Shown here piece by piece: positions 1,424 to 37,775 of a DNA stretch of 49,386 nt. The stretch lies in the sequence record SRR31156797_898, one strand, 5' to 3'. The notes beneath the pieces are model-generated. The model ran no database searches and was not told the origin of the DNA. It saw only the letters and a program-made list of their open reading frames with translations. The translations under genes and the position numbers were made by a program. Each line of letters begins with the position of its first letter. Within the stretch, counting starts at the first letter, position 1.

Positions 1424-3532
1424 TTAATATTTGATGCCGATAATTGAAGTTACAGCAACATTAGCCCATTGAGTTCCTGAGCCACCTAGTGCATGTAAGT
1501 CACCATTAACTGCCGAATCAACCCAAAAGTTGACGTTTGCAGCCGCATCAGTTACTTGCACCTGCGATACCTGCCAACGCTTTCTACTTAGCAGTTGATT
1601 AACTTTGAGGTTTCTAGTGTATCTGTGGTTAATACCGCCAAGGTCAGCAGTGTATTCAACCTCAAGTTCATCGTATCCTGAGTAATCAGAATAACTTAAC
1701 AGTTTGGTTGCAGGTGATAGTTCAGTAAAAGAAGGAGCTACTGGTGCTAATAATAAGTTGTCAGATAACCCACGTTTAATCGTCGGTGTCTTACTCCCTG
1801 CTTCATCACGTATTTTCAGTTTTCCGTTTGTAACTTGAATTGTGACTACTTGATTACCTTTAACTACAAACTTCGCACCTTGATTGATTTCATATGCGTC
1901 ATAATCCCATTGCCAACTAGCATCTGGATCAATGACGACATTTACACTTGTATCCCCCGACCATTTTGCTAATGCTACTGCTATAGAGTCACCATCATTT
2001 AGCGATGTGTCGATTGACAGTATCTTGCTCGTGTTGTCTGTCATATCAAACACATAGTATTTACCCTTGGCTGCTACAGTGTTTGAGTTAACGTAAGTAG
2101 GTTTTGTAACACCTCCACCACCTACCGCACCCCATTCCTGAGTCTCAGGGTTAAACGCTTCATACTCATCGGTGTCAGTATTGAAACCAAAGATAGCTTT
2201 AGTAGTAGATGTTGTGTCAGGTCGTCCAGCAGTTGTCCAACGAGGTACATCAATACCACCTGTCGTACCATGAGACTTTACAATAACGGTATCAGCATCA
2301 GCTTTCGTTCCTAGCGCTGTTTGGTTATTCGCCGCCAGCGTTTCAACATCAGTGATTCGTGTCTCATGGTTATCAAGAGTTAAATCATGGCTATCAACTG
2401 TGCTTTCCAGATCTGTGACGCGAGTTCCTAGCGGATCGGTGATCTGTAAAACTTCTGTTTTTGAGTAAACATCATCGATATCGTCCGCAACAAGAACAAC
2501 ATCACCTTCTTTACCGTTGACTGAGTTCACCTTGTCGGTGTTGTCAATTTTGTACCAGAGATCATTTTGTCTGTCCCAGTACAAATTATCACTGACCTGT
2601 ACTTCGACATCAGGTTGAACTCCATCAGACATAACACCTGCAACCGATATACGATACCAGTCAGTTCTTTCTTCAGGCGTGAGTGTTGGCGTTGGAAAGT
2701 TACCTGCAGATGCATCCCATGAACCACGATCAATAACACCGCTACTTGCAGTTAATGCAGCAGCTTCTGCGCGGTCAGCATCATCGCTAGCACTAGCAGC
2801 ACTCTGAGCTGCATTTGTCTCACTTAATGCAGCCGCGGTCGCACTGTTTGAAGCGTTAAGCTCACTCTGGGCTGCATTAGTTGCGCTTGTTTGAGCTTCT
2901 GCAGCACTATCGTTTGCAGATAGTGCACTGTTAGCAGCATTGGTCTCACTTTGCGCTGCTGCTGTTGCGCTATTGGCAGCATTTAGCTCACTCTGAGCCG
3001 CATTCGTTGCGCTTGTTTGGGCGCTTGTTGCACTGTTAGCAGCATTTGTTTCACTGTTTGAAGCAGATAACGCGCTGTCATTGGCATTAGATTCACTCTG
3101 AGCAGCATTAGCCTCACTCTGTGCAGCAGCCGCTTCACTATTAGCGGCATTTAGTTCACTTTGAGCAGCTTCTGCTGCGCTGGCCGCTGCTTCCGCTGCA
3201 ATAAGTTGAAGCTGGGTAATGAGTATCGGATCTGGCTCTTCATTCGACGTAGCAATCAAAGTGATGATATCGATCGGGCTAGGAGAACCTTCACCAACGA
3301 CAACGGTACCGATATTGGTGAACGCTTGTGCACCTTTACTTTTAACGGCAAACATATGCTTACCGTGAACAAGTTGAAAGTCGTATTCACCAGCAGAGGA
3401 TAAGACAATAAGGCTATCTGAGTTCTTTGTTGTCTTGCCATAGTTTAGCTTTGAAATAATTCTAAGCTCAGCATCAGATTCAACACCTGACGATGGATCT
3501 TCAAGAATCCCTGTTACTTGGATTGATGGCAT
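1424..3532 (-). CDS. Side tail fibre protein with Ala/Ser/Asn-rich repeats
   Basis: Repeated SE(T/L/A)NAA units as in lambda Stf-like fibres; VNSVNGKEGDVVL motif; position after J. Confidence 0.85.
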   Translation of the reverse strand: MPSIQVTGILEDPSSGVESDAELRIISKLNYGKTTKNSDSLIVLSSAGEYDFQLVHGKHMFAVKSKGAQAFTNIGTVVVGEGSPSPIDIITLIATSNEEPDPILITQLQLIAAEAAASAAEAAQSELNAANSEAAAAQSEANAAQSESNANDSALSASNSETNAANSATSAQTSATNAAQSELNAANSATAAAQSETNAANSALSANDSAAEAQTSATNAAQSELNASNSATAAALSETNAAQSAASASDDADRAEAAALTASSGVIDRGSWDASAGNFPTPTLTPEERTDWYRISVAGVMSDGVQPDVEVQVSDNLYWDRQNDLWYKIDNTDKVNSVNGKEGDVVLVADDIDDVYSKTEVLQITDPLGTRVTDLESTVDSHDLTLDNHETRITDVETLAANNQTALGTKADADTVIVKSHGTTGGIDVPRWTTAGRPDTTSTTKAIFGFNTDTDEYEAFNPETQEWGAVGGGGVTKPTYVNSNTVAAKGKYYVFDMTDNTSKILSIDTSLNDGDSIAVALAKWSGDTSVNVVIDPDASWQWDYDAYEINQGAKFVVKGNQVVTIQVTNGKLKIRDEAGSKTPTIKRGLSDNLLLAPVAPSFTELSPATKLLSYSDYSGYDELEVEYTADLGGINHRYTRNLKVNQLLSRKRWQVSQVQVTDAAANVNFWVDSAVNGDLHALGGSGTQWANVAVTSIIGIKY

Positions 3533-3698: not shown

Positions 3699-6600
3699 TT
3701 AGTCCTTAAACGCCATGACACACCCAGTAGATGCCTCTGTTCCTCCAGAACTAGTCATTACTTGAAGTGTTAACGTGTAGTTTGTGTTTGAAAATAGATT
3801 CCTAACGACATACGGAGGGGTTAGAGCTAGGGCACCAAATGCAGCGTAAATAAAGGTTATCTGGCCTACGACTGCGCCATTAACCAGAAATCTTGCATAA
3901 CCTACCTGACCTGCAACGCTTACCGGTGCAAACTGTGCAGATCGATTAAAAGGTTTATTGCCAATGTTTACACTGTATAAAGTGGTCCAGGTATTGTCAG
4001 GAATGCTAGCTATGGCCCCTACTGATATTGGATAAGCCTTTATGACATCACCCTCAATCTTTTCTGCGTATACGGTTCCTGTGAAGTTACCATCAACACC
4101 TTCAAGCGTTCCTCGGAATGTGCCATCGTTGAATTCAACGTTACCGTTTTTATCAATTTTCCAGCCGTTGATACCTTGTGTGTAATTTGTTGACTGTAAG
4201 GTATTGCTGATCTTCGCAAAATCTATCGTTGCATCACCAATAATCGCTGCATTCAAAATCGCAGTATCATTAACAGTGTCGAAGATAAATGGTGCGTGAA
4301 TTTCGCCATCAATGGTGTTCAGAAAGCCAACTGTGTCAGCCATGACAAGAAATTCAGACCGTGTTGTACCATCGGCACCAATTGACGCGCCCAATCCTAC
4401 GCCAGCTTGGACTACTTTACCGTCCTGTCTAACTTCAGTTTTAACCTGCCAATTTGCCGTTAATCCATCTTCTAGGCTATTAACGGTTGTGGTTAACTCT
4501 TCAACAGCTGCCGCAGCATCTGCTCCAGCTGTTATCTGATCTGCAAGGCTCTGAGCTAGTTCACTCTCACTAATTTGTCCTTGAAGATAGTCAAGGATTT
4601 CACTCGCGCTTTCTGACGATTTTCCATAAACGCCAGCTCCATTTGATAGCGGTTTCCATTCACCAGCTAGTCCATTCTTATCAATCAACCTAGCCCAGAA
4701 CCACATTTCAGTTCCGTACCCAAGTCCGTTTACGGTAAATGATGTGGATGGATAAGCTGCGATAGTTAGCGGATAGCTTGAAGCAAAGCTATTAGTTAAG
4801 TTAGCTCTGATTTCAATTTGACTGATGATGTTTGCAGTATCTGGAAATGACCAATCAAGCTTTATTGCCATCACCTGACCAGTAGCAGACAAAGTTTCTA
4901 GTACTGGTGGTGCACCGACAATGCCATTGAGTTGAGTTGCTTCTGAATAGGCCCATAAAGAAGGTACATCAAGAGCATTGATCGCCCTAATCCTTACTAA
5001 ATATTCCCCTGAGAAGATATCGTTTAACTGAACCGTTCTAGTTCCTGTACGAGTAACAGAAACCCAATCACCATTATCTCTACGCCATTGAACATCATAA
5101 AGAACCGCATATTCAGGCGCGTCCCAAGTTATCTCGGCATTTTGTCGAGTACTGCCTTGTTTGTAAGTGTTAAACTGCGTTATCTGGATATTTGTTGGTG
5201 CTGTTTGAGCTCTTGGAGGAACGACTGATACTGGTAGCGGATCAAGCCTTACCCCATTATCAATAGCATCAAACTTGCCCGGATGATGGAGAACACAATT
5301 AATATCGTATTGAATTCCATCGCTTTCTGATATCGATATTACGCGAGCAGGCTGTGTCAATAAATCGTCTGCATCTATTGACCAAATTAGCTGTGTTGAT
5401 GGCACTTCGCTAAAGTCTTCAGATACAATTATTCTTCTTCCTTCTACGTCAGAAACTAGCGCTGTTTCACTATTTCCGCTTGGAAGGTTGACGTTGATCG
5501 TGTCACCAATCTTAGCCGGATGGTCTCTATCCGTGACGATGTAATCAGTACCGGCTTGACTAATTCTGCCACCAATATGACGCCCAGCGCGGTTTCTATC
5601 GGCGATCTTGATAAGTGAACCTGGTTGAGGAATTACACCGTCTAAGCCAACGCTAAACGCGACTGTTCCGGTCTCCATTCTCGATGTATAGAGTAAATAC
5701 AAACCTACCCGCTGCGCCTGACCGCGAGAAGTACAGCCAAAGGCAATTACTTCCGTTTTTCTTATTCCATATCGAGCAATGCCGTCTTCGTCCTCGACAA
5801 CTTCAACTTTTGATTTGTAGAAGTTGTCTGGGTCATTCCATGACACAAGCGCAACTGTTTTACGAGACTTAATGTCTGTACCAGAATATTCAAATTTACC
5901 ATCAATAACGTTCGCATTGGTGTAGTTATAAACTGGGTCGCTAGGCATGTCAGAAACAGGAATAACCTGACTATCCGACCAATAAGCCATTCCTCGGAAT
6001 ACGCTGGATAAGTCATTTAGCACACGTAGCGCATCTTGAGCAGACTGAATATAACAGTTACATACAAATCTTGGCTCTGTTCCTCCTTGACCATCACTTA
6101 CCAATTGATCACAGTAAGCGCCTATTTGGTATAGAGAGTAACGATCTACATAATTAACATTAATATACTCACCAAGCCCATAGAGGTTATTGGTTAGCAT
6201 GTCGTAAAAAACCCAAGCTGGATTGTTGCTGTATGCGCTTTTTAGCGTTCCATCCCATACACCAGAATATGTACGAGTCTCAGGATCGTAATTCGAAGGA
6301 ACACGAATAATGCGACCTTTCCAATGATAGGCACGAGTAGGAATGCTCTGGAATTGCTCAGCATCTATTTTCAATCCAACAAGAGCAGTCATTGGATGAC
6401 GGAACTTGCCATCAATCACTTCAGCGTATGAAGAAAGGAAAATTGCATCCTGAATCGTGGTGCTAGTCGATTCGACAGTAATGCGACGAACACGGACTGT
6501 CCAAGAAGAATGACCACTTGGTAAATTGATACGATGCGTTCTTGTGTAGCCATTAACGGTCTTACCGTCGAAGCTGGCCAGAACTACATTTTCAAAAGAA

Positions 6601-30286: not shown

Positions 30287-30357
30287 ACTATAACCCACAG
30301 GTAATATAAAATTCAATACCCACAGGGAATTTACCTACAGGTTAATAGTGATAAAAT
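30287..30357. promoter_or_regulatory. OR region: three 16-bp operators, PR (minus) and PRM (plus)
   Basis: ATAACCCACAGGTAAT 30290-30305, AATACCCACAGGGAAT 30315-30330, TTTACCTACAGGTTAA 30330-30345; PR TTGAAT-N18-TATAGT; PRM extended -10 TGaTAAAAT. Confidence 0.85.
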
Positions 30358-30363
30358 CTTTGT

Positions 30364-31044
30364 ATGGATATTTATGAAATTAGGCGTCAGCGCCTACTTA
30401 AGCTGAAAGACGAAAGGTGTAACGGTAAGATTGTTACGCTTGCAGAGAAAATCGACACATCTCAATCTTACGTGTCGAGGATGCTTTATTCCCCAGACAA
30501 AGTAGGAAAGAAAAATATATCTGATGTAATGGTTCAAAAAATTACTGATGCTTTTGGGCTAAACAAAGGCTGGCTAGATGGGATTGACCATGATGAAGGA
30601 TTGAATAACGTAACTAGGTTAGATATCCAGCCATCATACAAAGATAAATACCCAATTCTAGGGAAAGTATCAGCCGGTAGGTTCAAGGACGCAGTGCAAA
30701 CATTTGACTTAGAGTATGAGCAGAGCACCGTTAAATGCAGTAATGATTCATTCTGGCTTGTTGTAGACGGGCATTCAATGACAGCACCTCAAGGATCTGG
30801 AATCTCATTTTTAGAGGGTATGCTGATACTGGTTGATCCAGAACGCGAATACTGTCATGGAAATTTTGTCGTTGCTTACTGTGAAGATAAACATATGGCG
30901 ACATTTAAAAAAATCAGCATTGAACCGGAAGGAGTATTTTTGGTTCCTCTTAATCCAGATCCGACTTATAGACGCATAAACATGGCTGACGAGTACTGTG
31001 AGGTTGCAGGAGTAGTTGTCGATGCCAGGTGGAAGATGTTTTAA
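30364..31044 (+). CDS. cI: CI repressor (HTH + S24 peptidase)
   Basis: N-terminal HTH; VSAG cleavage site, VDGHSM Ser motif, ATFKK Lys motif. Confidence 0.95.
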   Translation: MDIYEIRRQRLLKLKDERCNGKIVTLAEKIDTSQSYVSRMLYSPDKVGKKNISDVMVQKITDAFGLNKGWLDGIDHDEGLNNVTRLDIQPSYKDKYPILGKVSAGRFKDAVQTFDLEYEQSTVKCSNDSFWLVVDGHSMTAPQGSGISFLEGMLILVDPEREYCHGNFVVAYCEDKHMATFKKISIEPEGVFLVPLNPDPTYRRINMADEYCEVAGVVVDARWKMF

Positions 31045-31450: not shown

Positions 31451-32149
31451 TTATGCAACAGTAGCTTTAAGAATCCCGAAATCAATTAGCTTTTTCGTCA
31501 ACCACTGCTCACCCTTACCCGTAATTAGCGGCGTGTGGGAAATTCTTGTTTCCCCATTGGCTTCATAGCTCCCCTGTCTCACTTGGAAGTATCCGCGCTC
31601 AATAAACTCTTGGAATGGTAGGTTGTGACGCTCACCGCCAGCCATTAAGATCTTTATTTCTCTAAGTATCGAAAATATCTTGCGAGGTCCAAGACCTACA
31701 GATTTAGCAAAGTTCCCTAACTGAACGCCCTTATCTGCTGATGCTATGCGATCAGCAAATTCAGCCTTAGGTGCAGCTATGGCAAGTTGTCTTTGGGTTT
31801 CTTCGTTCTGTTTCGCAAGCTCAGCGGCAAGCAGTAAAGCTTCTGGAAGTGTTTGAGGGATTTTGAATTGATTGGCTTCTTCAAGTTCTTGCCATCGGTC
31901 TACGAGACGAGCCGTAAATTCTGGTGATAGTTGAGCAACAACAACGTAACTATCTCGCTTAGTAACATGGTAGATGGTTATTGGCTTTCCGCCTCCGGCG
32001 GTCGGTTCCACCGTTGGTGTAATCGAAATAACTAGGCTCGATGCCATTCTCTCCATTGATCGCTTAACGCTGTCATGACGAGAGTTGGTAAGCTCCGCAA
32101 TCTCGCGGCTGCTCATGGTTAGATTTTGGTCGTGTTTAATCATATTCAT
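31451..32149 (-). CDS. Antirepressor (Rha N-terminal + KilA-C/ANT C-terminal)
   Basis: LTMSSREIAELT, PEFTARLVDRWQELE, IPQTLPEALLLAA, APKAEFAD, ITGKGEQWL. Confidence 0.92.
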   Translation of the reverse strand: MNMIKHDQNLTMSSREIAELTNSRHDSVKRSMERMASSLVISITPTVEPTAGGGKPITIYHVTKRDSYVVVAQLSPEFTARLVDRWQELEEANQFKIPQTLPEALLLAAELAKQNEETQRQLAIAAPKAEFADRIASADKGVQLGNFAKSVGLGPRKIFSILREIKILMAGGERHNLPFQEFIERGYFQVRQGSYEANGETRISHTPLITGKGEQWLTKKLIDFGILKATVA

Positions 32150-32297: not shown

Positions 32298-32420
32298 CAG
32301 AAACCAAAAAGCCCGCATAAGCGGGCTAATCGGGTGACGAACCGACCAAGGCAACGTCACGAAGGTAACAACCAATGAATATCATTCATTAGCTTGTGGG
32401 CCACGACCAAGCAACCCACG
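32298..32420 (-). ncRNA. Candidate sRNA-1 (three UUGGUYG motifs plus terminator)
   Basis: Hairpins with motif-bearing loops; minus-strand terminator agcccgc-ttat-gcgggct-tttt; -10-like TACTAT upstream; paralog at 34642-34790. Confidence 0.6.
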
Positions 32421-32479
32421 CAGGTATAGTAACTCAATGAATATCTTCGTTCCACAAATCCAATAATTTTTATGATACC

Positions 32480-32503
32480 TACCGTCCTAGTGGCGGTTTT
32501 TTA
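32480..32503 (+). terminator. Intrinsic terminator upstream of pL
   Basis: accgtc ctagt ggcggt followed by a T-tract. Confidence 0.7.
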
Positions 32504-32542
32504 TGCCTGAAAATTAACCCAGTAAATTTAAAATAAAAAAAT

Positions 32543-32586
32543 ATTACCTTGAGGTATTGACATAAAATATAACCCGCAGGTAATAT
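32543..32586 (+). promoter_or_regulatory. pL promoter with two OL operators
   Basis: TTGACA 32557-62, N18, TAATAT; operators ATTACCTTGAGGTATT 32543-58 and ATAACCCGCAGGTAAT 32569-84 match the OR sites. Confidence 0.85.
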
Positions 32587-32608
32587 CAACCACATCAACA
32601 CGAAACAC

Positions 32609-32621
32609 CGCTCTTTAACAA
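32609..32621 (+). promoter_or_regulatory. boxA antitermination site
   Basis: CGCTCTTTAACAA, the lambdoid/rrn boxA consensus, shortly after the pL start. Confidence 0.85.
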
Positions 32622-32639
32622 CTTGCACCATGAACGATT

Positions 32640-33717
32640 ACCAGTAGTTCGGAATTGCCGAACAACTGGAGGTCACTCCGAGTAACCCAGTGACGGAGGA
32701 CAGAAATTCACTGAAATAGACCTTATTCACCGCTACGGCGACCGGATGTAATGACCTATAGATAATGGGATTTGCACTTGCTGGATGGCTTAACCGAGAG
32801 GATGACCCGATAAGTGAATAAGCCCCGCCAGTCTCGGCGGTGAGGTAGAGACAAAATAGGCTTTGGAAACAGAGCCGATTTGAAAGTGGTCTGTAGTTCA
32901 CTGGTAGAACGACGTTAGCCACGTTGCCAAAGAACGCATGACGGTAGCACCTGAAATGTAATCTTTGGGGGTATGCATGCCTATGATGGTTCAAATCCAT
33001 TCAGACCACTTTCAAATAATCCGAGTTTTCTTGCTGTGATAAGCAGATAGAAAACAAATCTGACTCCGATAATTCGGGTGTGAAGCCAACACATAAAAAT
33101 ACAAAACCTTACTCAGTTGGGAGTAAGCCCAGTAATCACATATAGGTGAAGTGCATTGGCAGTGCGCTGAAAAAGAGCTGGCATCCCGAACAAAGGACGA
33201 AATGTCTCGGATTATTACTAAAGGTGTTTCGGTGAGTGGTTGGAAAATTCCATTAACTGTATAAGTTTTGAAAATTTCAAATAGTCAACCACTCAGCCGA
33301 AGCATCTTGGACATGCTGATATCCATAGACGGTATACGGTGTAGCCATCGGTAATCCGCGCCAGTTCACCACTGCACTGGAAGCTGTAAGCTTAGGTCGT
33401 GAATTAAACCTAAGACGTAGACGAGCAGTAATAATGCTACGGAATGAGCGAGGGATCCTTAACTTCGTGATCATTATGGCGGCGGGAAAGACCGCGAGAT
33501 AATGGGACTTCATCGCCGAAACTCTAAATGAGCATGATGGACGTGTGATTCGAAGCCAGCAACGAGAAGGGCTTGGTCTAAATTGTACAACCCGTGATGG
33601 GGAATGAATCAATCTGACACCTCGGAAAGACGGGGGATTTTGTTTAGTGGTTTTGGACGCGTCGATCAGCAGGGAAACCGTAAGGCTAGGAGCCATCTTT
33701 AAACCACTAAACAAAAT
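32640..33717 (+). ncRNA. Array of structured non-coding RNA modules
   Basis: No plus-strand ORF in the track; consecutive modules closed by 9-22 bp stems. Confidence 0.65.
32878..33017 (+). ncRNA. Giant tRNA-like RNA
   Basis: 16-bp closing stem, D-arm gttc-actggta-gaac, T-arm gatgg-ttcaaat-ccatt, ~75-nt central insert, no encoded CCA tail. Confidence 0.65.
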
Positions 33718-33719
33718 AT

Positions 33720-33791
33720 GCTTCGTTAGCTCAGTGGTAGAGCGGACGGCTTTTAACCGTTAGGTCGCAGGTTCAAATCCTGCACGAAGCT
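33720..33791 (+). tRNA. tRNA-Lys(UUU), variant
   Basis: Full cloverleaf gcttcgt/acgaagc; anticodon arm gacgg-CTTTTAA-ccgtt; T-arm gcagg-ttcaaat-cctgc; 3' TTCA rather than ACCA. Confidence 0.88.
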
Positions 33792-33798
33792 TCAGTTT

Positions 33799-33883
33799 GC
33801 CCCGTATGCCAACACTAGCCTTCTAAGCTAGTACGTAAAAAGTTGGAAGGACGTGAGAGGTTCGATTCCTCTACGGGGTGCCA
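33799..33883 (+). tRNA. Non-canonical tRNA-Arg(UCU)-like RNA lacking a D-arm
   Basis: Acceptor gccccgt/acggggt plus GCCA; T-arm agagg-ttcgatt-cctct; anticodon arm actagc-CTTCTAA-gctagt. Confidence 0.7.
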
Positions 33884-33909
33884 GTTAAACAGCAATTAAG
33901 GATTTAGTC

Positions 33910-34380
33910 ATGGAGATTGATTGGAAGTATTTCAGCCAAACTAATGGCTACAAATCTTTGAAATCTGCTTATATGCGCGATGTTAAAAAAGCTGGCAACG
34001 AAAAGCGTCCAATGCGCAACAAGGATGAATTTTACAAGCGCTTTCAATGGGTAATTAGTCGCTGCATCCATTATGCACATGCACTGAATAAGAAACCTTG
34101 GGAAGTTTTGGATGATTGGGAATCTAAGCGTGATTATTGGTGGTTTAGTTTCTACCAAGATTCAAATCAACGGAAGATTCGAACGGAATCTATATCTCGC
34201 AAACCAATGCATATCAGAGGCATTAAGAAGTATTACAAAAGTGGTCACTTTCCTGATTCAAACACAAGAGTAAACAAAAGAATTGGCGATCACCTTAGAA
34301 GTAAGCGAACTAAAAAGCCTCGTTGGACACCAGAACGCAAAGCTAGACGAGATAAAGCAGCTAAATACAAGAATCTGTAA
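33910..34380 (+). CDS. Basic hypothetical protein
   Basis: 156-aa Lys/Arg/aromatic-rich ORF with AAGGA SD; first protein gene of the pL operon. Confidence 0.75.
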   Translation: MEIDWKYFSQTNGYKSLKSAYMRDVKKAGNEKRPMRNKDEFYKRFQWVISRCIHYAHALNKKPWEVLDDWESKRDYWWFSFYQDSNQRKIRTESISRKPMHIRGIKKYYKSGHFPDSNTRVNKRIGDHLRSKRTKKPRWTPERKARRDKAAKYKNL

Positions 34381-34641: not shown

Positions 34642-34790
34642 CAGAAACCAAAAACCCCGCATAAGCGGGGCAATCAGGGAGCGGGTAACGACCAAGAAAC
34701 ACGCTCCATGCTGCTTTCGCAGCGAGGTAACGACCAATGAACACTCACGTTCACCAGCCAGCAAGCCGCGACCAAGCGGCTTACTCATCG
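34642..34790 (-). ncRNA. Candidate sRNA-2 (three UUGGUCG motifs plus terminator)
   Basis: Same architecture and near-identical terminator tail as 32298-32420. Confidence 0.6.
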
Positions 34791-35202: not shown

Positions 35203-36033
35203 ATGAGTAACATTACATCATTCGAGGAGCGCCACCCCGCTGTATCAAAACGAGGGATTGATGAATCAACGTGGTCAGCGCTGAAGAATAGCGTTTATCC
35301 GGGCGCTAAAGAAGAATCCATCTTAATGGTTATCGACTACTGCCGCGCTCGTAACTTTGACCCTCTTCTAAAGCCTGTCCATATCGTTCCTATGAATGTT
35401 AAGAACTCGCAGACCAACAACAATGAATGGCGTGATGTTGTTATGCCTGGCATTGGTATGTACCGAATTCAAGCAGATAGAAGTGGTACATATGCAGGTT
35501 CAACAGAACCAGAATTTGGTCCACTTGTTTCTATGGATTTTAGGGGCGAAGGAAACCAAGTAGAAACCATCAATTTCCCTGAGTGGTGCAAAATCACTGT
35601 TTACAAAGTCGTTAACGGCAACCCAGTTGCTTTTTCTGCTAAGGAAATGTGGCTGGAAAACTACGCAACAGCTGGGCGAAACACTCAAATCCCAAATGCC
35701 ATGTGGAAAAAGCGGCAATATGCACAGCTGGCTAAATGTACCGAAGCACAAGCACTACGTAAGGCATGGCCTGAAATTGGTCAGCAAGCTACTGCTGAAG
35801 AAATGGAAGGGAAAGATTTGATCATTGAGCATGATGTATCACCAACCAAGTCTCTTCCAAATCAAGCAACTAACTACTTACAAGCTGACTTTGATAAGAA
35901 TTTCGATAAGTGGAAAGAGCTTATCGAGTCAGGTCGTAACACACCAGAACGCATCATTTCTATGGCTGAATCAAAAGGCAAGATGACAGACGAAATGAAA
36001 GCAAAAATTAAGAAGATTAATCAGGAGCAATGA
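35203..36033 (+). CDS. bet: Single-strand annealing recombinase (Bet/RecT family)
   Basis: DYCRARNFDPLLKPVHIVPM, YRIQADRSG, QLAKCTEAQALRKAWP. Confidence 0.92.
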   Translation: MSNITSFEERHPAVSKRGIDESTWSALKNSVYPGAKEESILMVIDYCRARNFDPLLKPVHIVPMNVKNSQTNNNEWRDVVMPGIGMYRIQADRSGTYAGSTEPEFGPLVSMDFRGEGNQVETINFPEWCKITVYKVVNGNPVAFSAKEMWLENYATAGRNTQIPNAMWKKRQYAQLAKCTEAQALRKAWPEIGQQATAEEMEGKDLIIEHDVSPTKSLPNQATNYLQADFDKNFDKWKELIESGRNTPERIISMAESKGKMTDEMKAKIKKINQEQ

Positions 36034-37775
36034 TCATGAAAGTATCAAACGTTAAGTTTCACAACGTTCAACAAGGAACGCCTGAGTGGCATGCTCTTCG
36101 TGACTCTGTTGATTTCACTGCTTCTGAAGTTTCTGCGGCTCTTGGGTGTTCACCATATAAAACACGCGATCAGCTGATGCATGAAAAAGCGACCGGAATT
36201 AAACCAGAAGTATCAAGTTATCAAGAAAAGATATTTGCTGATGGTCACCGCTTTGAAGAGTTTGCTCGAGCGATTCTAGAAAACCGCTTAGGTGAAGAAT
36301 TGTACCCAACGACTATCACTGGTGAATGTGGTGGACTTACCCTACTCGCTTCGCTTGATGGTTTAACCATGGATGGCGTTTTAGCTTTTGAGCACAAGTC
36401 ACCAAACAGCAAAGTTGTTGCTGCTATCCATGCTGAAAAACTCGATGACCATTACAACTACCAAATGGAGCAGCAACTTCTTCTATCTGGTGCGGCATCA
36501 TGTAAGTTCGTTGCTAGTGACGGCACAGAAGATAACTGGAACGAGCTTGAATACAAACCAAACAAAGCACTCATTAAGAAAATGCTTGCAGGTTTAAAAC
36601 AGTTCAAAGCCGACTTAGAAGAATACAAAACCAAGCTTGCTAATGGTGAAGTTTCTCAACAGTCTAAACCTGAAGTCGTTGCAGAAGTCATTCAAGACCT
36701 TCCTGCTATCAGCTACAAGATGAACGGCCTAGCGATTAACAGCAACCTCGAAGAGTACAAATCAAAAGCACTCGAATTGGTTGAGCAATCCAAGAAGAAG
36801 CTGGAAACAGATCAGGACTTTGCCAATGCTGAAAACATGGTCAAAGTATTTAAGTCTGCCGAGGATAAGCTAGGTTTAATGTCTCAGCAGGTACTTGGTG
36901 AAGTTGAAAGCATCGATAAGTTTGTCAAAGACCTTGGCTTTATCAGCGAGAACATTCGTCAAGCCCGTCTAGGTTTAGATAAGCAGGTGAAACTTCGCAA
37001 GGAAGAGATTAAAACCGAGATTGTTGTTGCGGCTAAGAACGAGCTCAATACTCTTATCAACGAAGCATCAACCAAGTACAACGTTAGATTCAATATCACT
37101 GCTGACTTTGCTGGTGCCATTAAAGGCAAACGCAACATCGAAAGCATGCGCAGCGCCATTAGTGAAGAGCTAGCGAACGCTAAGATCACCCTTTCTGAAC
37201 AAAAAGATATTGTTCAAACCAACCTAGACCACGTTAAACAGCATCAAGAGTATAAGTTCCTGTTTAATGACTGGTCGGTTATTGCTTTTAAACCTGCTGA
37301 TGATTTCCAGACTTTGGTTAAGCTTCGCATTTCTGAGCATAAAGAAGCTGAAGAGAAGCGACTAGAGCAAGAGCGTGAACGTATTCGCCAAGAAGAAGCC
37401 GACAAGGCCAAGCTTGAAGCAGAAGAAAAGACCAAGCTCGAAGAGGCTGAAAAGCTAGCCTGTAGCTCTAACGGATCAATTGCTGAAGCTCAAAGACTTG
37501 GCAAGGCAGAATCACAACTTACTCATGAAGTTGTTCAGCAATCTACCACTCAACCAAGCCGACTAGACCAAGCTCGTCAAGTAATGCAACAAGCAGAAAC
37601 GGCTCCAGTTGCTTCTGTTGAACGCGCAGAACGTTCAGACGAAATGATTAGCTTATCTGTGAAAGAGTACAACGAGCTAATGAGTAAAGCTAACTTACTC
37701 GAAGCCCTGTACGCAGCTGGCGTTGATAACTGGGATGGATACAGTGAAGCCATGGCAATGGTTTCTGCGGCATAA
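36030..37775 (+). CDS. YqaJ/lambda-Exo-type exonuclease with long coiled-coil extension
   Basis: QGTPEWHALR, TASE, GHRFE, ASLDG, FEHK and YQMEQQL motifs. Confidence 0.9.
   Translation: MIMKVSNVKFHNVQQGTPEWHALRDSVDFTASEVSAALGCSPYKTRDQLMHEKATGIKPEVSSYQEKIFADGHRFEEFARAILENRLGEELYPTTITGECGGLTLLASLDGLTMDGVLAFEHKSPNSKVVAAIHAEKLDDHYNYQMEQQLLLSGAASCKFVASDGTEDNWNELEYKPNKALIKKMLAGLKQFKADLEEYKTKLANGEVSQQSKPEVVAEVIQDLPAISYKMNGLAINSNLEEYKSKALELVEQSKKKLETDQDFANAENMVKVFKSAEDKLGLMSQQVLGEVESIDKFVKDLGFISENIRQARLGLDKQVKLRKEEIKTEIVVAAKNELNTLINEASTKYNVRFNITADFAGAIKGKRNIESMRSAISEELANAKITLSEQKDIVQTNLDHVKQHQEYKFLFNDWSVIAFKPADDFQTLVKLRISEHKEAEEKRLEQERERIRQEEADKAKLEAEEKTKLEEAEKLACSSNGSIAEAQRLGKAESQLTHEVVQQSTTQPSRLDQARQVMQQAETAPVASVERAERSDEMISLSVKEYNELMSKANLLEALYAAGVDNWDGYSEAMAMVSAA

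Follow-up and report, generated by a model that had tools for sequence, protein, structure and literature searches.

A boxA- and pseudoknot-bearing leader heads a non-coding RNA array in a Vibrio-type prophage and may act in anti-termination

The 49,386-nt stretch SRR31156797_898 (hereafter the window, to which all positions refer) is a lambdoid prophage of a Vibrio-type host, and the region considered here, 32590–33890, lies directly behind one of its early promoters. This region is a non-coding, plus-strand RNA array supported by covariation, in which ~1.1 kb of cassettes follow a leader. The first ~260 nt, comprising a boxA, a variable hairpin and a pseudoknotted RNA that we call M1, are a conserved operon leader and not cargo, and most likely a cis-acting transcription-elongation signal, as judged from comparison of related sequences. 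Our preferred reading, to which we assign a probability of roughly 0.55, is that the array forms the untranslated head of a pL-type operon, in which boxA and M1 make RNA polymerase resistant to termination. An earlier description of this region (the original prediction) had seen in it a precursor cut into discrete RNAs, possibly decoys or anti-defence RNAs; as a cargo reading this may apply to the cassettes, whereas the boxA, hairpin, pseudoknot and M1 have to be taken out of it.

Structured, non-coding RNA on the plus strand

From 5′ to 3′, the elements of the array are the following.

32610–32621, plus strand: boxA, GCTCTTTAACAA, a single exact copy in the window
32628–37, plus strand: conserved spacer, CCATGAACGA, kept in all leaders
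32641–69, plus strand: variable hairpin, occupying the position of the lambda boxB
32670–32852, plus strand: M1, structured leader RNA of ~185 nt
32859–32876, plus strand: M2a, hairpin GGCTTTG-GAAA-CAGAGCC, kept in nine related loci
32878–33017, plus strand: M2b, with a 16-bp stem, ATTTGAAAG.../...CTTTCAAAT (inverted repeat I9)
33015–33216, plus strand: M3, structured RNA with an 11-bp closing stem
33221–33308, plus strand: M4, long hairpin of ~22 bp with one bulge and G-U pairs
33310–33503, plus strand: M5, structured RNA with a three-way-junction domain, ending in a TGAC-stem-GAAAGA hairpin (33482–95)
33504–33611, plus strand: M6, linker common to near-identical relatives only (BLAST map)
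33612–33717, plus strand: M7, consisting of TGACA, a CCTCG-GAAAGA-CGGGG hairpin (33620–35) and a 17-bp stem (33637–53/33701–17)
33720–33791, plus strand: transfer RNA (tRNA) gene tRNA-Lys, anticodon UUU (ARAGORN tRNA-Lys(ttt); Rfam RF00005, 75.4 bits against a threshold of 29)
33799–33883, plus strand: non-canonical tRNA(UCU), with an 8-bp acceptor stem, a 4-bp T stem and a TTCGATT loop

Related sequences were drawn from a phage collection and, beyond it, from the nearest provirus (G001), IMG/VR contigs and Vibrio genomes. In the phage collection, 25 H20-like/p41 phages of Vibrio anguillarum match 30–31% of the stretch at ~80% identity. Matches to the Vibrio phages K391, 234P10 and PS17B.1 are limited to 33613–33708, and those to GRLPWR and Gary (Demerecviridae, Thalassavirus) to the tRNA-like gene at the end of the array.

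The five long stems named in the original prediction are all present. Four pair exactly, namely 32722–30/32814–22 (9/9), 32878–93/33002–17 (16/16), 33015–25/33206–16 (11/11) and 33637–53/33701–17 (17/17), and the fifth (33221–42/33286–308) reads by eye as 12 bp, a bulged G and a further 10 bp, G-U pairs included. The arms of the second and of the 17-bp stem were also detected in an inverted-repeat search (I9 and I4, respectively). All five stay paired despite sequence change in relatives, and compensatory changes, the kind of evidence in homologues to which the original prediction had pointed, are frequent among the Vibrio relatives collected. The picture of back-to-back, discrete and self-folding modules with long closing stems is thus borne out by covariation, with one correction to the list of modules: 32722–30/32814–22 is an internal helix of M1 and does not close a module. 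Folding energies agree, with z-scores of −5.4 for 32878–33017 (M2b; −50.6 kcal/mol) and −4.1 for 33612–33720, and none of 200 shuffles (0/200) as good.

Protein coding, either by small plus-strand open reading frames (ORFs) or by the minus-strand ORFs 32638–33000 (120 aa) and 33277–33714 (145 aa), is already contradicted and in our estimate hardly credible. The two minus-strand ORFs do exist, and the record of phage p41 carries a minus-strand hypothetical protein over M1 and M3. Against this, neither the two ORFs nor the p41 protein are conserved: the 120-aa frame crosses a tRNA-like insert that relatives lack, and five related loci (L096, L098, L100, L102 and L105) have no minus-strand ORF of at least 60 aa over M1. 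On the plus strand, 32590–33909 holds only ORFs of 37, 32 and 38 aa (among those of at least 30 aa), in agreement with the earlier statement that none reaches 60 aa, and the ATG frames of M5 differ between the window and p41. Codon periodicity is absent, with no period of 3 among variable columns (p = 0.82 for M1, 0.94 for M5 and 0.79 for M3), and frame-breaking indels occur throughout, internal indels being mostly of lengths other than multiples of 3 (48/51 in M1, 31/36 in M5, 12/13 in M3). Compensatory pairing, together with an excess of G-U over A-C among paired columns (57 cells versus 11), marks the functional molecule as plus-strand RNA.

The same 57-to-11 excess, specific to one transcribed strand, indicates that the helices are not features of the DNA. 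An alternative would be that they act at the DNA level (in recombination, as a replication or transfer origin, or in packaging) or are decayed remnants devoid of function, given that module boundaries coincide with stems, that modules are shuffled among relatives and that M1 adjoins traY on plasmids. However, the conserved loops and the pseudoknot are RNA features, and the same leader occurs both behind a phage promoter and within tra operons, so that we regard this explanation as highly improbable.

When searched with Rfam 15, the window yielded only tRNA at the gathering score, as did 20 related loci. In particular, the original prediction had been unable to match the region to the large phage RNAs GOLLD and ROOL by eye, and Rfam likewise returned no match to them over 32400–34000 at E values up to 10; the weak matches in that range (plastid untranslated regions, microRNAs, a small nucleolar RNA) are due to chance. 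Absent from Rfam 15 are thus at least four structured RNA families (M1, M3, M5 and M7) and, besides them, the TGACA-stem-GAAAGA hairpin. Mimicry of CRISPR (clustered regularly interspaced short palindromic repeats) units and likeness to integron attC sites were also considered by eye and dropped.

A conserved leader with boxA and a pseudoknot

Close to the promoter, CGCTCTTTAACAA (32609–32621) is a lambda-type boxA near the consensus CGCTCTT(T)A, and its 12-mer is identical to a Vibrio rrn boxA. The Vibrio genome G002 contains this 12-mer seven times, with four copies in rrn-type leaders at contig ends and one in the leader of its own prophage. In the rrn-type leaders, boxA is followed by ...TGTGTGGGCACTC and the boxC-like TGTGTGGG; the 16S gene would lie beyond the contig ends and is for that reason not seen.

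The architecture of the leader recurs in all related loci that have it. In 23/23 related leaders, boxA differs from GCTCTTTAACAA by no more than one change, and behind it come a spacer with CCATGAACGA at its end, a variable hairpin region, GGTCA and an H-type pseudoknot, while the promoter and operator sequences upstream, and likewise the content downstream, are unrelated. The hairpin region differs in sequence and loop from leader to leader, and those instances read by eye can form a stem-loop. With boxA and the pseudoknot held constant behind any promoter and ahead of any cargo, the leader is best explained as a cis-acting signal addressed to the transcribing polymerase.

In the window, the pseudoknot interleaves 32676–80/32694–98 with 32688–93/32708–13. 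Across 16 distinct sequences, its pairing is complete (176/176 cells), and 8 of its 11 pairs have changed on both sides; when the partners are slid by 1–3 columns as a control, pairing drops to 27–40%. The other parts of M1 are the long-range stem 32722–30/32814–22, an inner hairpin, a CCGCC/GGCGG hairpin (32825–29/32836–40) and an invariant GGTAGA tail. Over M1 (16 sequences), 95.2% of cells are paired and 14 of 33 pairs have changed on both sides, a level equalled by none of 500 shuffles and compared with 25–42% pairing in slid controls.

What stands behind M1 varies widely. In four related loci (L101, L104, L105 and L107), M1 and M2 run straight into a ribosome-binding site (RBS) and an ATG. 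M1 is also present on four Vibrio plasmids, three of them typed as conjugative. On V. tasmaniensis p1 (MOBF, MPF_F; L126, 5001–5240), boxA and M1 fill an unannotated gap between traY and traA-traL-traE-traK-traB-traV-traC, and on V. tubiashii p48 (L127, 4001–4236) they fill the corresponding unannotated gap between traY and virB2-virB3-virB4. The former is an F-type and the latter a VirB-type operon of a type IV secretion system (T4SS), with M1 preceding the pilin gene in both; TraL and TraE were confirmed with Pfam.

By BLAST, matches were found in 14/285 Vibrio species genomes and in 13/401 sampled Vibrionaceae genomes, just one of which was new with respect to the search of the genus, and the leader pattern occurred in 0/400 other sampled genomes of the class. 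The leader is thus narrowly distributed, and the array, in the searches run, is confined to Vibrio elements. A scan of the genome collection with an M1 pattern returned 50 loci, mostly by chance, of which only two Vibrio loci were homologous by BLAST; five Enterobacterales loci were not.

Such a narrow distribution would also suit a different role, that of a riboswitch-like element or RNA thermometer: M1, alone or together with M2, would sense a ligand or signal as a 5′ leader and so gate downstream expression, boxA being incidental. A conserved fold of ~185 nt with a pseudoknot and a multi-helix junction is reminiscent of large aptamers, M1 lies directly upstream of an RBS in several relatives, and U-rich stretches come after the M2a hairpin and after the hairpin at 33620. 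These U tracts are short, however, and belong to the following long stem as its 5′ strand; no alternative pairing of M1 with a terminator or RBS was found, and in the window M1 precedes RNA genes and not an ORF. A boxA that is (near-)invariant in 23/23 leaders argues for a function of boxA itself and against a sensing leader, which we consider improbable.

Promoter control and the anti-termination reading

The control region of the array and the repressor gene are laid out as follows.

30364–31044: S24-peptidase (CI/LexA-type) repressor gene (Pfam)
opposite in orientation to the repressor gene: cII-like and cro-like genes
32546–59: weaker operator copy, TTACCTTGAGGTAT (read by eye)
32557–32586, plus strand: early-left promoter, with −35 TTGACA (32557–62), 18 nt and −10 TAATAT (32581–86) (promoter scan)
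32570–83: operator repeat, TAACCCGCAGGTAA, between the −35 and −10 hexamers

The TTGACA/TAATAT promoter at 32557–86 is the sole strong match of the promoter scan in this region, and a terminator-like hairpin (32481–97) lies upstream of it. A 14-bp inverted-repeat operator motif, TWMCCYKYRGGKWA, is found between its hexamers and again at 30291, 30316 and 30331 in the cI/cro intergenic region, where the operator cluster (30291–30344) has the cro-like gene on one side and the S24 repressor gene on the other. In all, 8 matches were counted against 1.41 expected, and 0/100 shuffles get to 8. Since the motif is common to the array promoter and the cI/cro region, the label pL is reasonable, and 32557–86 is an early promoter under repressor control that points towards the recombination genes. 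The array, standing directly behind this operator-bearing promoter, should be the first RNA made once the repressor is lost, in keeping with the earlier expectation that it would be the first product of induction.

The course of events that we envisage would begin with the loss of the S24-type repressor, which would free the promoter and allow a new RNA to be made with the rrn-type boxA, the variable hairpin and the pseudoknotted M1 at its head. BoxA would recruit NusB and S10 of the host and, together with the hairpin and M1, would turn RNA polymerase termination-resistant, much as rrn leaders and lambda nut sites do. The resistant polymerase could then cross ~1.1 kb of untranslated structured RNA, otherwise a natural Rho target, and reach the recombination genes (RecT and the YqaJ-gp5.9 exonuclease). 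Finally, the long helices (16–22 bp) may be cut by RNase III and the tRNA ends by RNase P/Z/E, which would release separate RNAs; cleavage by RNase III and RNase P, stable products and any decoy or anti-defence role are a matter of inference only. In the excerpts consulted of PMC12360218, boxA-bound NusB/E (S10) is described as an assembly step of the rrn and lambda N complexes that shield polymerase from Rho.

Several observations weigh against this account. The same excerpts describe boxA as also able to promote Rho termination, as in suhB and hisG (PMC12360218). The rrn boxC motif TGTGTGGG is not visible after boxA when the phage leader is read, no second boxA or M1 was found on the pR side of the prophage, and no N-like or other anti-termination protein was recognised among neighbouring ORFs with Pfam and PHROGs. 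On the plasmids, M1 lies within an operon, after traY, and not at the start of the transcript. M3, M5 and M7 have no assigned function, and although the 16–22-bp stems fit RNase III, their cutting is an inferred step. Public RNA runs contributed metatranscriptome contigs only, with word shares of 0.06–0.22. In three metatranscriptomes, short contig pieces map to M1/M3, to M5, to the tRNA and to the tRNA-like gene: one of 346 nt (depth 333) runs from the 3′ end of M1 into M3, an arrangement shared with V. injensis, others of 114–176 nt lie over M5, and one more covers the tRNA-like gene. As such libraries may contain DNA, and the contigs show neither ends nor strand, we did not use them as evidence of expression and take them as a weak hint at most.

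Among known systems, lambda nutL/N and the rrn leaders (boxA, NusB/S10, NusA, NusG, SuhB) have a similar layout, in which a long operon opens with a promoter-proximal boxA and then a hairpin; rrn operons further resemble the array in the long, untranslated and highly structured RNA that comes after the leader. The variable hairpin here is, however, probably not a lambda-type boxB, which has a GNRA-like pentaloop bound by an N protein encoded just 3′ of it, and no N-like gene was recognised; neither nut nor rrn leaders have a counterpart to the spacer CCATGAACGA and the ~185-nt pseudoknotted RNA, and the array leader is without boxC. A second precedent is the put site of HK022, ~70 nt long with two stem-loops and no boxA, which, like EAR, works in cis in processive anti-termination. 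The likeness would lie in a structured RNA just 3′ of a phage early promoter that could act on its own transcribing polymerase, with no dedicated protein evident, and the difference, at least in architecture, in the boxA, the pseudoknot and the larger fold of the present leader. A third is RfaH/ops, which controls long conjugation and surface-polysaccharide operons and acts on the long tra operon of E. coli F: M1, between traY and the pilin gene, similarly heads T4SS operons. The ops element is a DNA element (GGCGGTAGNNTG), however, and although the GGTAGA tail of M1 is invariant, the ops consensus is not kept; the ops motif had 0 matches in related loci, its sole match among 127 loci falling in an unrelated metagenome-assembled genome, and the exact GGCGGTAG is absent from the window.

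GOLLD and ROOL are alike in being large, ornate non-coding RNAs of prophages located next to tRNA genes, whereas the present array strings together separate modules that can be exchanged, instead of forming a single large fold, and matches neither of their Rfam models. Excerpts of PMC7567579 and bioRxiv 10.1101/2024.12.08.627333 present GOLLD and ROOL as large phage-associated RNAs near tRNA genes, and the former also gives a precedent in the abundant large non-coding RNA of vibriophage ICP1; ICP1 itself shows no similarity to the stretch by BLAST. In the portions of the literature consulted, no description of M1, M3, M5, M7 or the leader was found, and the excerpt of the paper on H20-like phages only mentions tRNA-Arg.

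Taken in its boldest form, the proposal is that boxA, spacer, hairpin, pseudoknot and M1 constitute a new RNA-based processive anti-termination module, a hybrid of nut and put that uses the host rrn boxA and that would serve prophages and conjugative plasmids of Vibrio in the way that N/nut serves lambda and RfaH/ops serves F. It would license an exchangeable RNA cargo, including an 8/4 tRNA(UCU) devoid of a D arm that would be active in translation or resistant to tRNA-targeting defence. This we advance tentatively. A boxA-linked pseudoknotted leader common to phage early operons and two kinds of conjugation operon in Vibrio could explain how mobile elements escape Rho, the main host silencer of foreign DNA, with neither a recognisable N nor RfaH/ops. 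At least four structured RNA families, which would be new, lie in the RNA expected to appear first when the prophage is induced, and phages swap them as they do accessory genes.

Exchangeable cassettes behind the leader

BLAST maps of the region are mosaic, and related elements carry differing combinations of cassettes. The nearest provirus, G001, joins 32853 directly to 33220 and is without 32854–33219, while p41 is without 32886–33001, which corresponds to the tRNA-like insert of M2b, and has M1 joined to M3. In the p41 record (L001, MK672799), a minus-strand hypothetical protein is annotated at 2942–3385, over the M1/M3 region, and a plus-strand coding sequence at 3947–4261, over a tRNA-Arg(UCU) gene (4002–4078); both are probably mis-annotations.

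The outer stem of M2b (ATTTGAAAS...STTTCAAAT) is kept in nine loci, with G-C, C-G or T-A as its tenth pair, and the nine M2 relatives cap the stem with other inserts, several of which are interleaved helices. The insert in the window is tRNA-like: the long stem prolongs a 7-bp acceptor stem, GTTC/GAAC with a GG loop makes up a D arm, and TTCAAAT is the loop of a T arm, while ~74 nt stand in place of the anticodon and variable arms. It was not called a tRNA by ARAGORN or Rfam, nor did it have any Rfam match at E up to 10 (Y-RNA-like families included). No copy of the insert (32886–33001) was found in the phage collection, viral contigs or metagenome contigs, and its structure is therefore a prediction from a single sequence.

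M3, compared in six sequences, has 40 predicted pairs, 21 of them with compensatory changes. Its closing stem is AATAATCCGAG/CTCGGATTATT in the window and AACAACTCTGG/CCAGAGTTGTT in p41, fully rewritten and still paired. The M4 helix, as read by eye, persists in its L010 and L103 homologues although their sequence is different.

In M5 (seven sequences), 93.7% of cells are paired and 24 of 37 pairs have changed on both sides; 0/500 shuffles equalled this, and slid controls reached 29–46%. A pattern scan with M5 gave nine loci, three of which (L014, L015 and L018) were unrelated, GC-rich chance matches and were dropped. One hairpin loop of M5 is pyrimidine-rich and resembles an anti-Shine-Dalgarno sequence, with CCTCC in 4/7 and CCTT in 6/7 sequences. 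In the window, the loop ATCCTTAA (33420–33445) is exactly complementary to TTAAGGAT (33893–33900), in the ribosome-binding region of the ORF that starts at 33910; the loops of relatives are of the CCTCCTT type, and the complementarity may be a general Shine-Dalgarno/anti-Shine-Dalgarno effect. Three partners for the M5 loop, namely the conserved GGAAGC, the GAAAGA loop and the RBS of ORF 33910, were considered by eye and set aside, as the pairing was inconsistent across relatives.

The 17-bp stem of M7 encloses a conserved core, GGGAAACCGTAAGGC, and M7 ends 2 nt 5′ of tRNA-Lys. A homologue in Vibrio phage K391, with at least six compensated stem pairs, similarly lies ~10 nt 5′ of a tRNA-Ser; among the matches found, M7 is represented by two sequence types only. 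M5 and M7 have in common a motif of TGAC(A), a stem of 4–5 bp and a GAAAGA hexaloop, which occurs in 12/23 leaders in 17 copies whose stems differ yet pair. In the window, exact copies stand at two module boundaries only, the end of M5 (33474–33495) and the start of M7 (33612–33635); one further variant was seen. The motif could be a protein-binding or processing signal.

A canonical tRNA-Lys and a tRNA(UCU) lacking the D arm

The array ends, as the original prediction had it, in two tRNA or tRNA-like genes. The first, tRNA-Lys(UUU), is a canonical cloverleaf whose CCA end is not encoded. In a V. injensis prophage (L103:2157–2228), its homologue has an 8-nt anticodon loop (ARAGORN 'attt') and an Rfam score of 51.1 bits, and could be a frameshift-type or degenerate tRNA.

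The second gene, tRNA(UCU), was not called by ARAGORN, and its best Rfam match was RF01852 (tRNA-Sec) at 31.5 bits, against a threshold of 47. Its anticodon stem is 5 bp long and carries the loop CTTCTAA, and a G followed by CCA is encoded at the 3′ end. The acceptor and anticodon stems are only 8 nt apart, too close to accommodate a D arm, and none is formed locally; instead, CCAAC (33809–13) pairs with GTTGG (33842–46) in a 24-nt variable region. An alignment of six distinct versions, from lambdoid Vibrio proviruses and Thalassavirus GRLPWR, supports this structure: pairing is complete (132/132 cells), and 10 of 22 pairs have changed on both sides. Three versions have A-U as the eighth acceptor pair and the other three G-C, so that the acceptor stem is 8 bp and the T stem 4 bp long. 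The anticodon loop CTTCTAA is invariant (6/6), while all five pairs of the anticodon stem change on both sides, and CCARC/GYTGG, which has one compensated A-U/G-C pair, extends the anticodon arm. The T loop, the G discriminator and the encoded CCA are conserved in the six versions, and the 12-bp acceptor/T branch and U33 are present. As the acceptor stem is that of a canonical 77-nt tRNA-Arg(UCU) found at the equivalent place in p41 and other relatives, the gene is a remodelled tRNA-Arg(UCU). ARAGORN runs with intron and mitochondrial options recognised neither of the two tRNA-like elements of the array, and a permissive run gave dozens of noise calls; a 93-nt 'tRNA-Arg' call in L106 was mis-registered.

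To our knowledge, loss of the D arm outside mitochondria is not an accepted tRNA design. In its acceptor/T branch (8 + 4 = 12 bp) tRNA(UCU) is like the 8/4 tRNAs, and in having lost the D arm while its anticodon arm is extended it is like certain mitochondrial tRNAs. The phage 8/4 tRNAs reported so far are Ser and His tRNAs, whereas the anticodon here is UCU; allo-tRNAs also keep a long variable arm and a tRNA-Sec-like D arm, whose long stem is capped by a tetraloop, whereas tRNA(UCU) is without a local D stem-loop. For these comparisons we rely on excerpts on 8/4 tRNAs in bacteria and phages (Mukai et al., PMC5389517, also for the long D stem of allo-tRNAs) and on D-arm loss with an extended anticodon arm in metazoan mitochondria (PMC7609411), and no bacterial or phage tRNA lacking the D arm is described in the portions of the literature consulted. 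The D-arm-less 8/4 tRNA(UCU) occurs in temperate Vibrio phages and in lytic T5-like Demerecviridae (Thalassavirus), and it would be informative on how far recognition by synthetase, EF-Tu and ribosome can be stretched, as well as on phage evasion of tRNA-cleaving defences. Together, the two tRNAs would supply or replace tRNAs reading AAA/AAG and AGA/AGG early in the lytic programme.

These genes also bear on a further explanation, that the array is mainly trans-acting cargo, its RNAs serving as decoys, as sponges or in anti-defence (directed, for instance, at RNA-guided systems or at defence nucleases that cleave tRNA), and that M1 is a stable regulatory RNA instead of an elongation signal. 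The cassettes are exchanged like accessory genes, the core of tRNA(UCU) is altered, and tRNA-Lys(UUU) is a known target of anticodon nucleases (PrrC, PARIS). The anti-Shine-Dalgarno-like loop of M5 and a weak mini-Qrr-like small RNA at the same array position in a related provirus (22 bits, E = 0.21) would fit as well, and the 114–346-nt metatranscriptome contigs over M1/M3, M5 and the tRNA-like gene add a faint hint. Nevertheless, no target, complementarity or defence system was identified, and the stable products are themselves a supposition. M1 is also found ahead of conjugation operons and ordinary phage genes, which a cis role fits better. On balance, we hold an array devoted mainly to trans-acting RNAs to be rather unlikely, and retain the anti-termination leader as the reading of its first ~260 nt.

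The mini-Qrr-like element lies on the minus strand of a Vibrio provirus (L114:730–793), directly 5′ of its tRNA(UCU)-like gene. It is a shortened Qrr-like small RNA with a first hairpin, an exact CCUAGCCAACUGACG and a terminator (RF00378, threshold 50), and could be a mimic of a quorum-sensing small RNA carried in a similar array. For the window itself, likeness to Qrr was rejected, as only AGCCAAC is in common with the Qrr seed sequence and the L114 match is below threshold.

Flanking genes and repeats

Further features of the surrounding region are the following.

31451–32149, minus strand: antirepressor (ANT/Rha; Pfam)
33910–34380, plus strand: first protein-coding ORF 3′ of the array, 156 aa, with a basic C-terminus
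beyond the array, plus strand: RecT, then a YqaJ exonuclease with a T7 gp5.9-type domain (Pfam)

ORF 33910 has no Pfam match, and PHROGs assigns it to phrog_24749, of unknown function. The exonuclease is a 581-aa protein (36030–37775), in which a YqaJ-type recombination exonuclease is joined to a C-terminal RecBCD-inhibitor domain of the T7 gp5.9 type (Pfam). The promoter, the RNA array and ORF 33910 are bracketed by a direct repeat of ~115–135 nt, with copies at 32298–32412 and 34642–34777. Each copy has a GC-rich hairpin that is terminator-like on the minus strand only, and the copies also contain repeated AGGTAACGACCAATGA units resembling an RBS and start codon.

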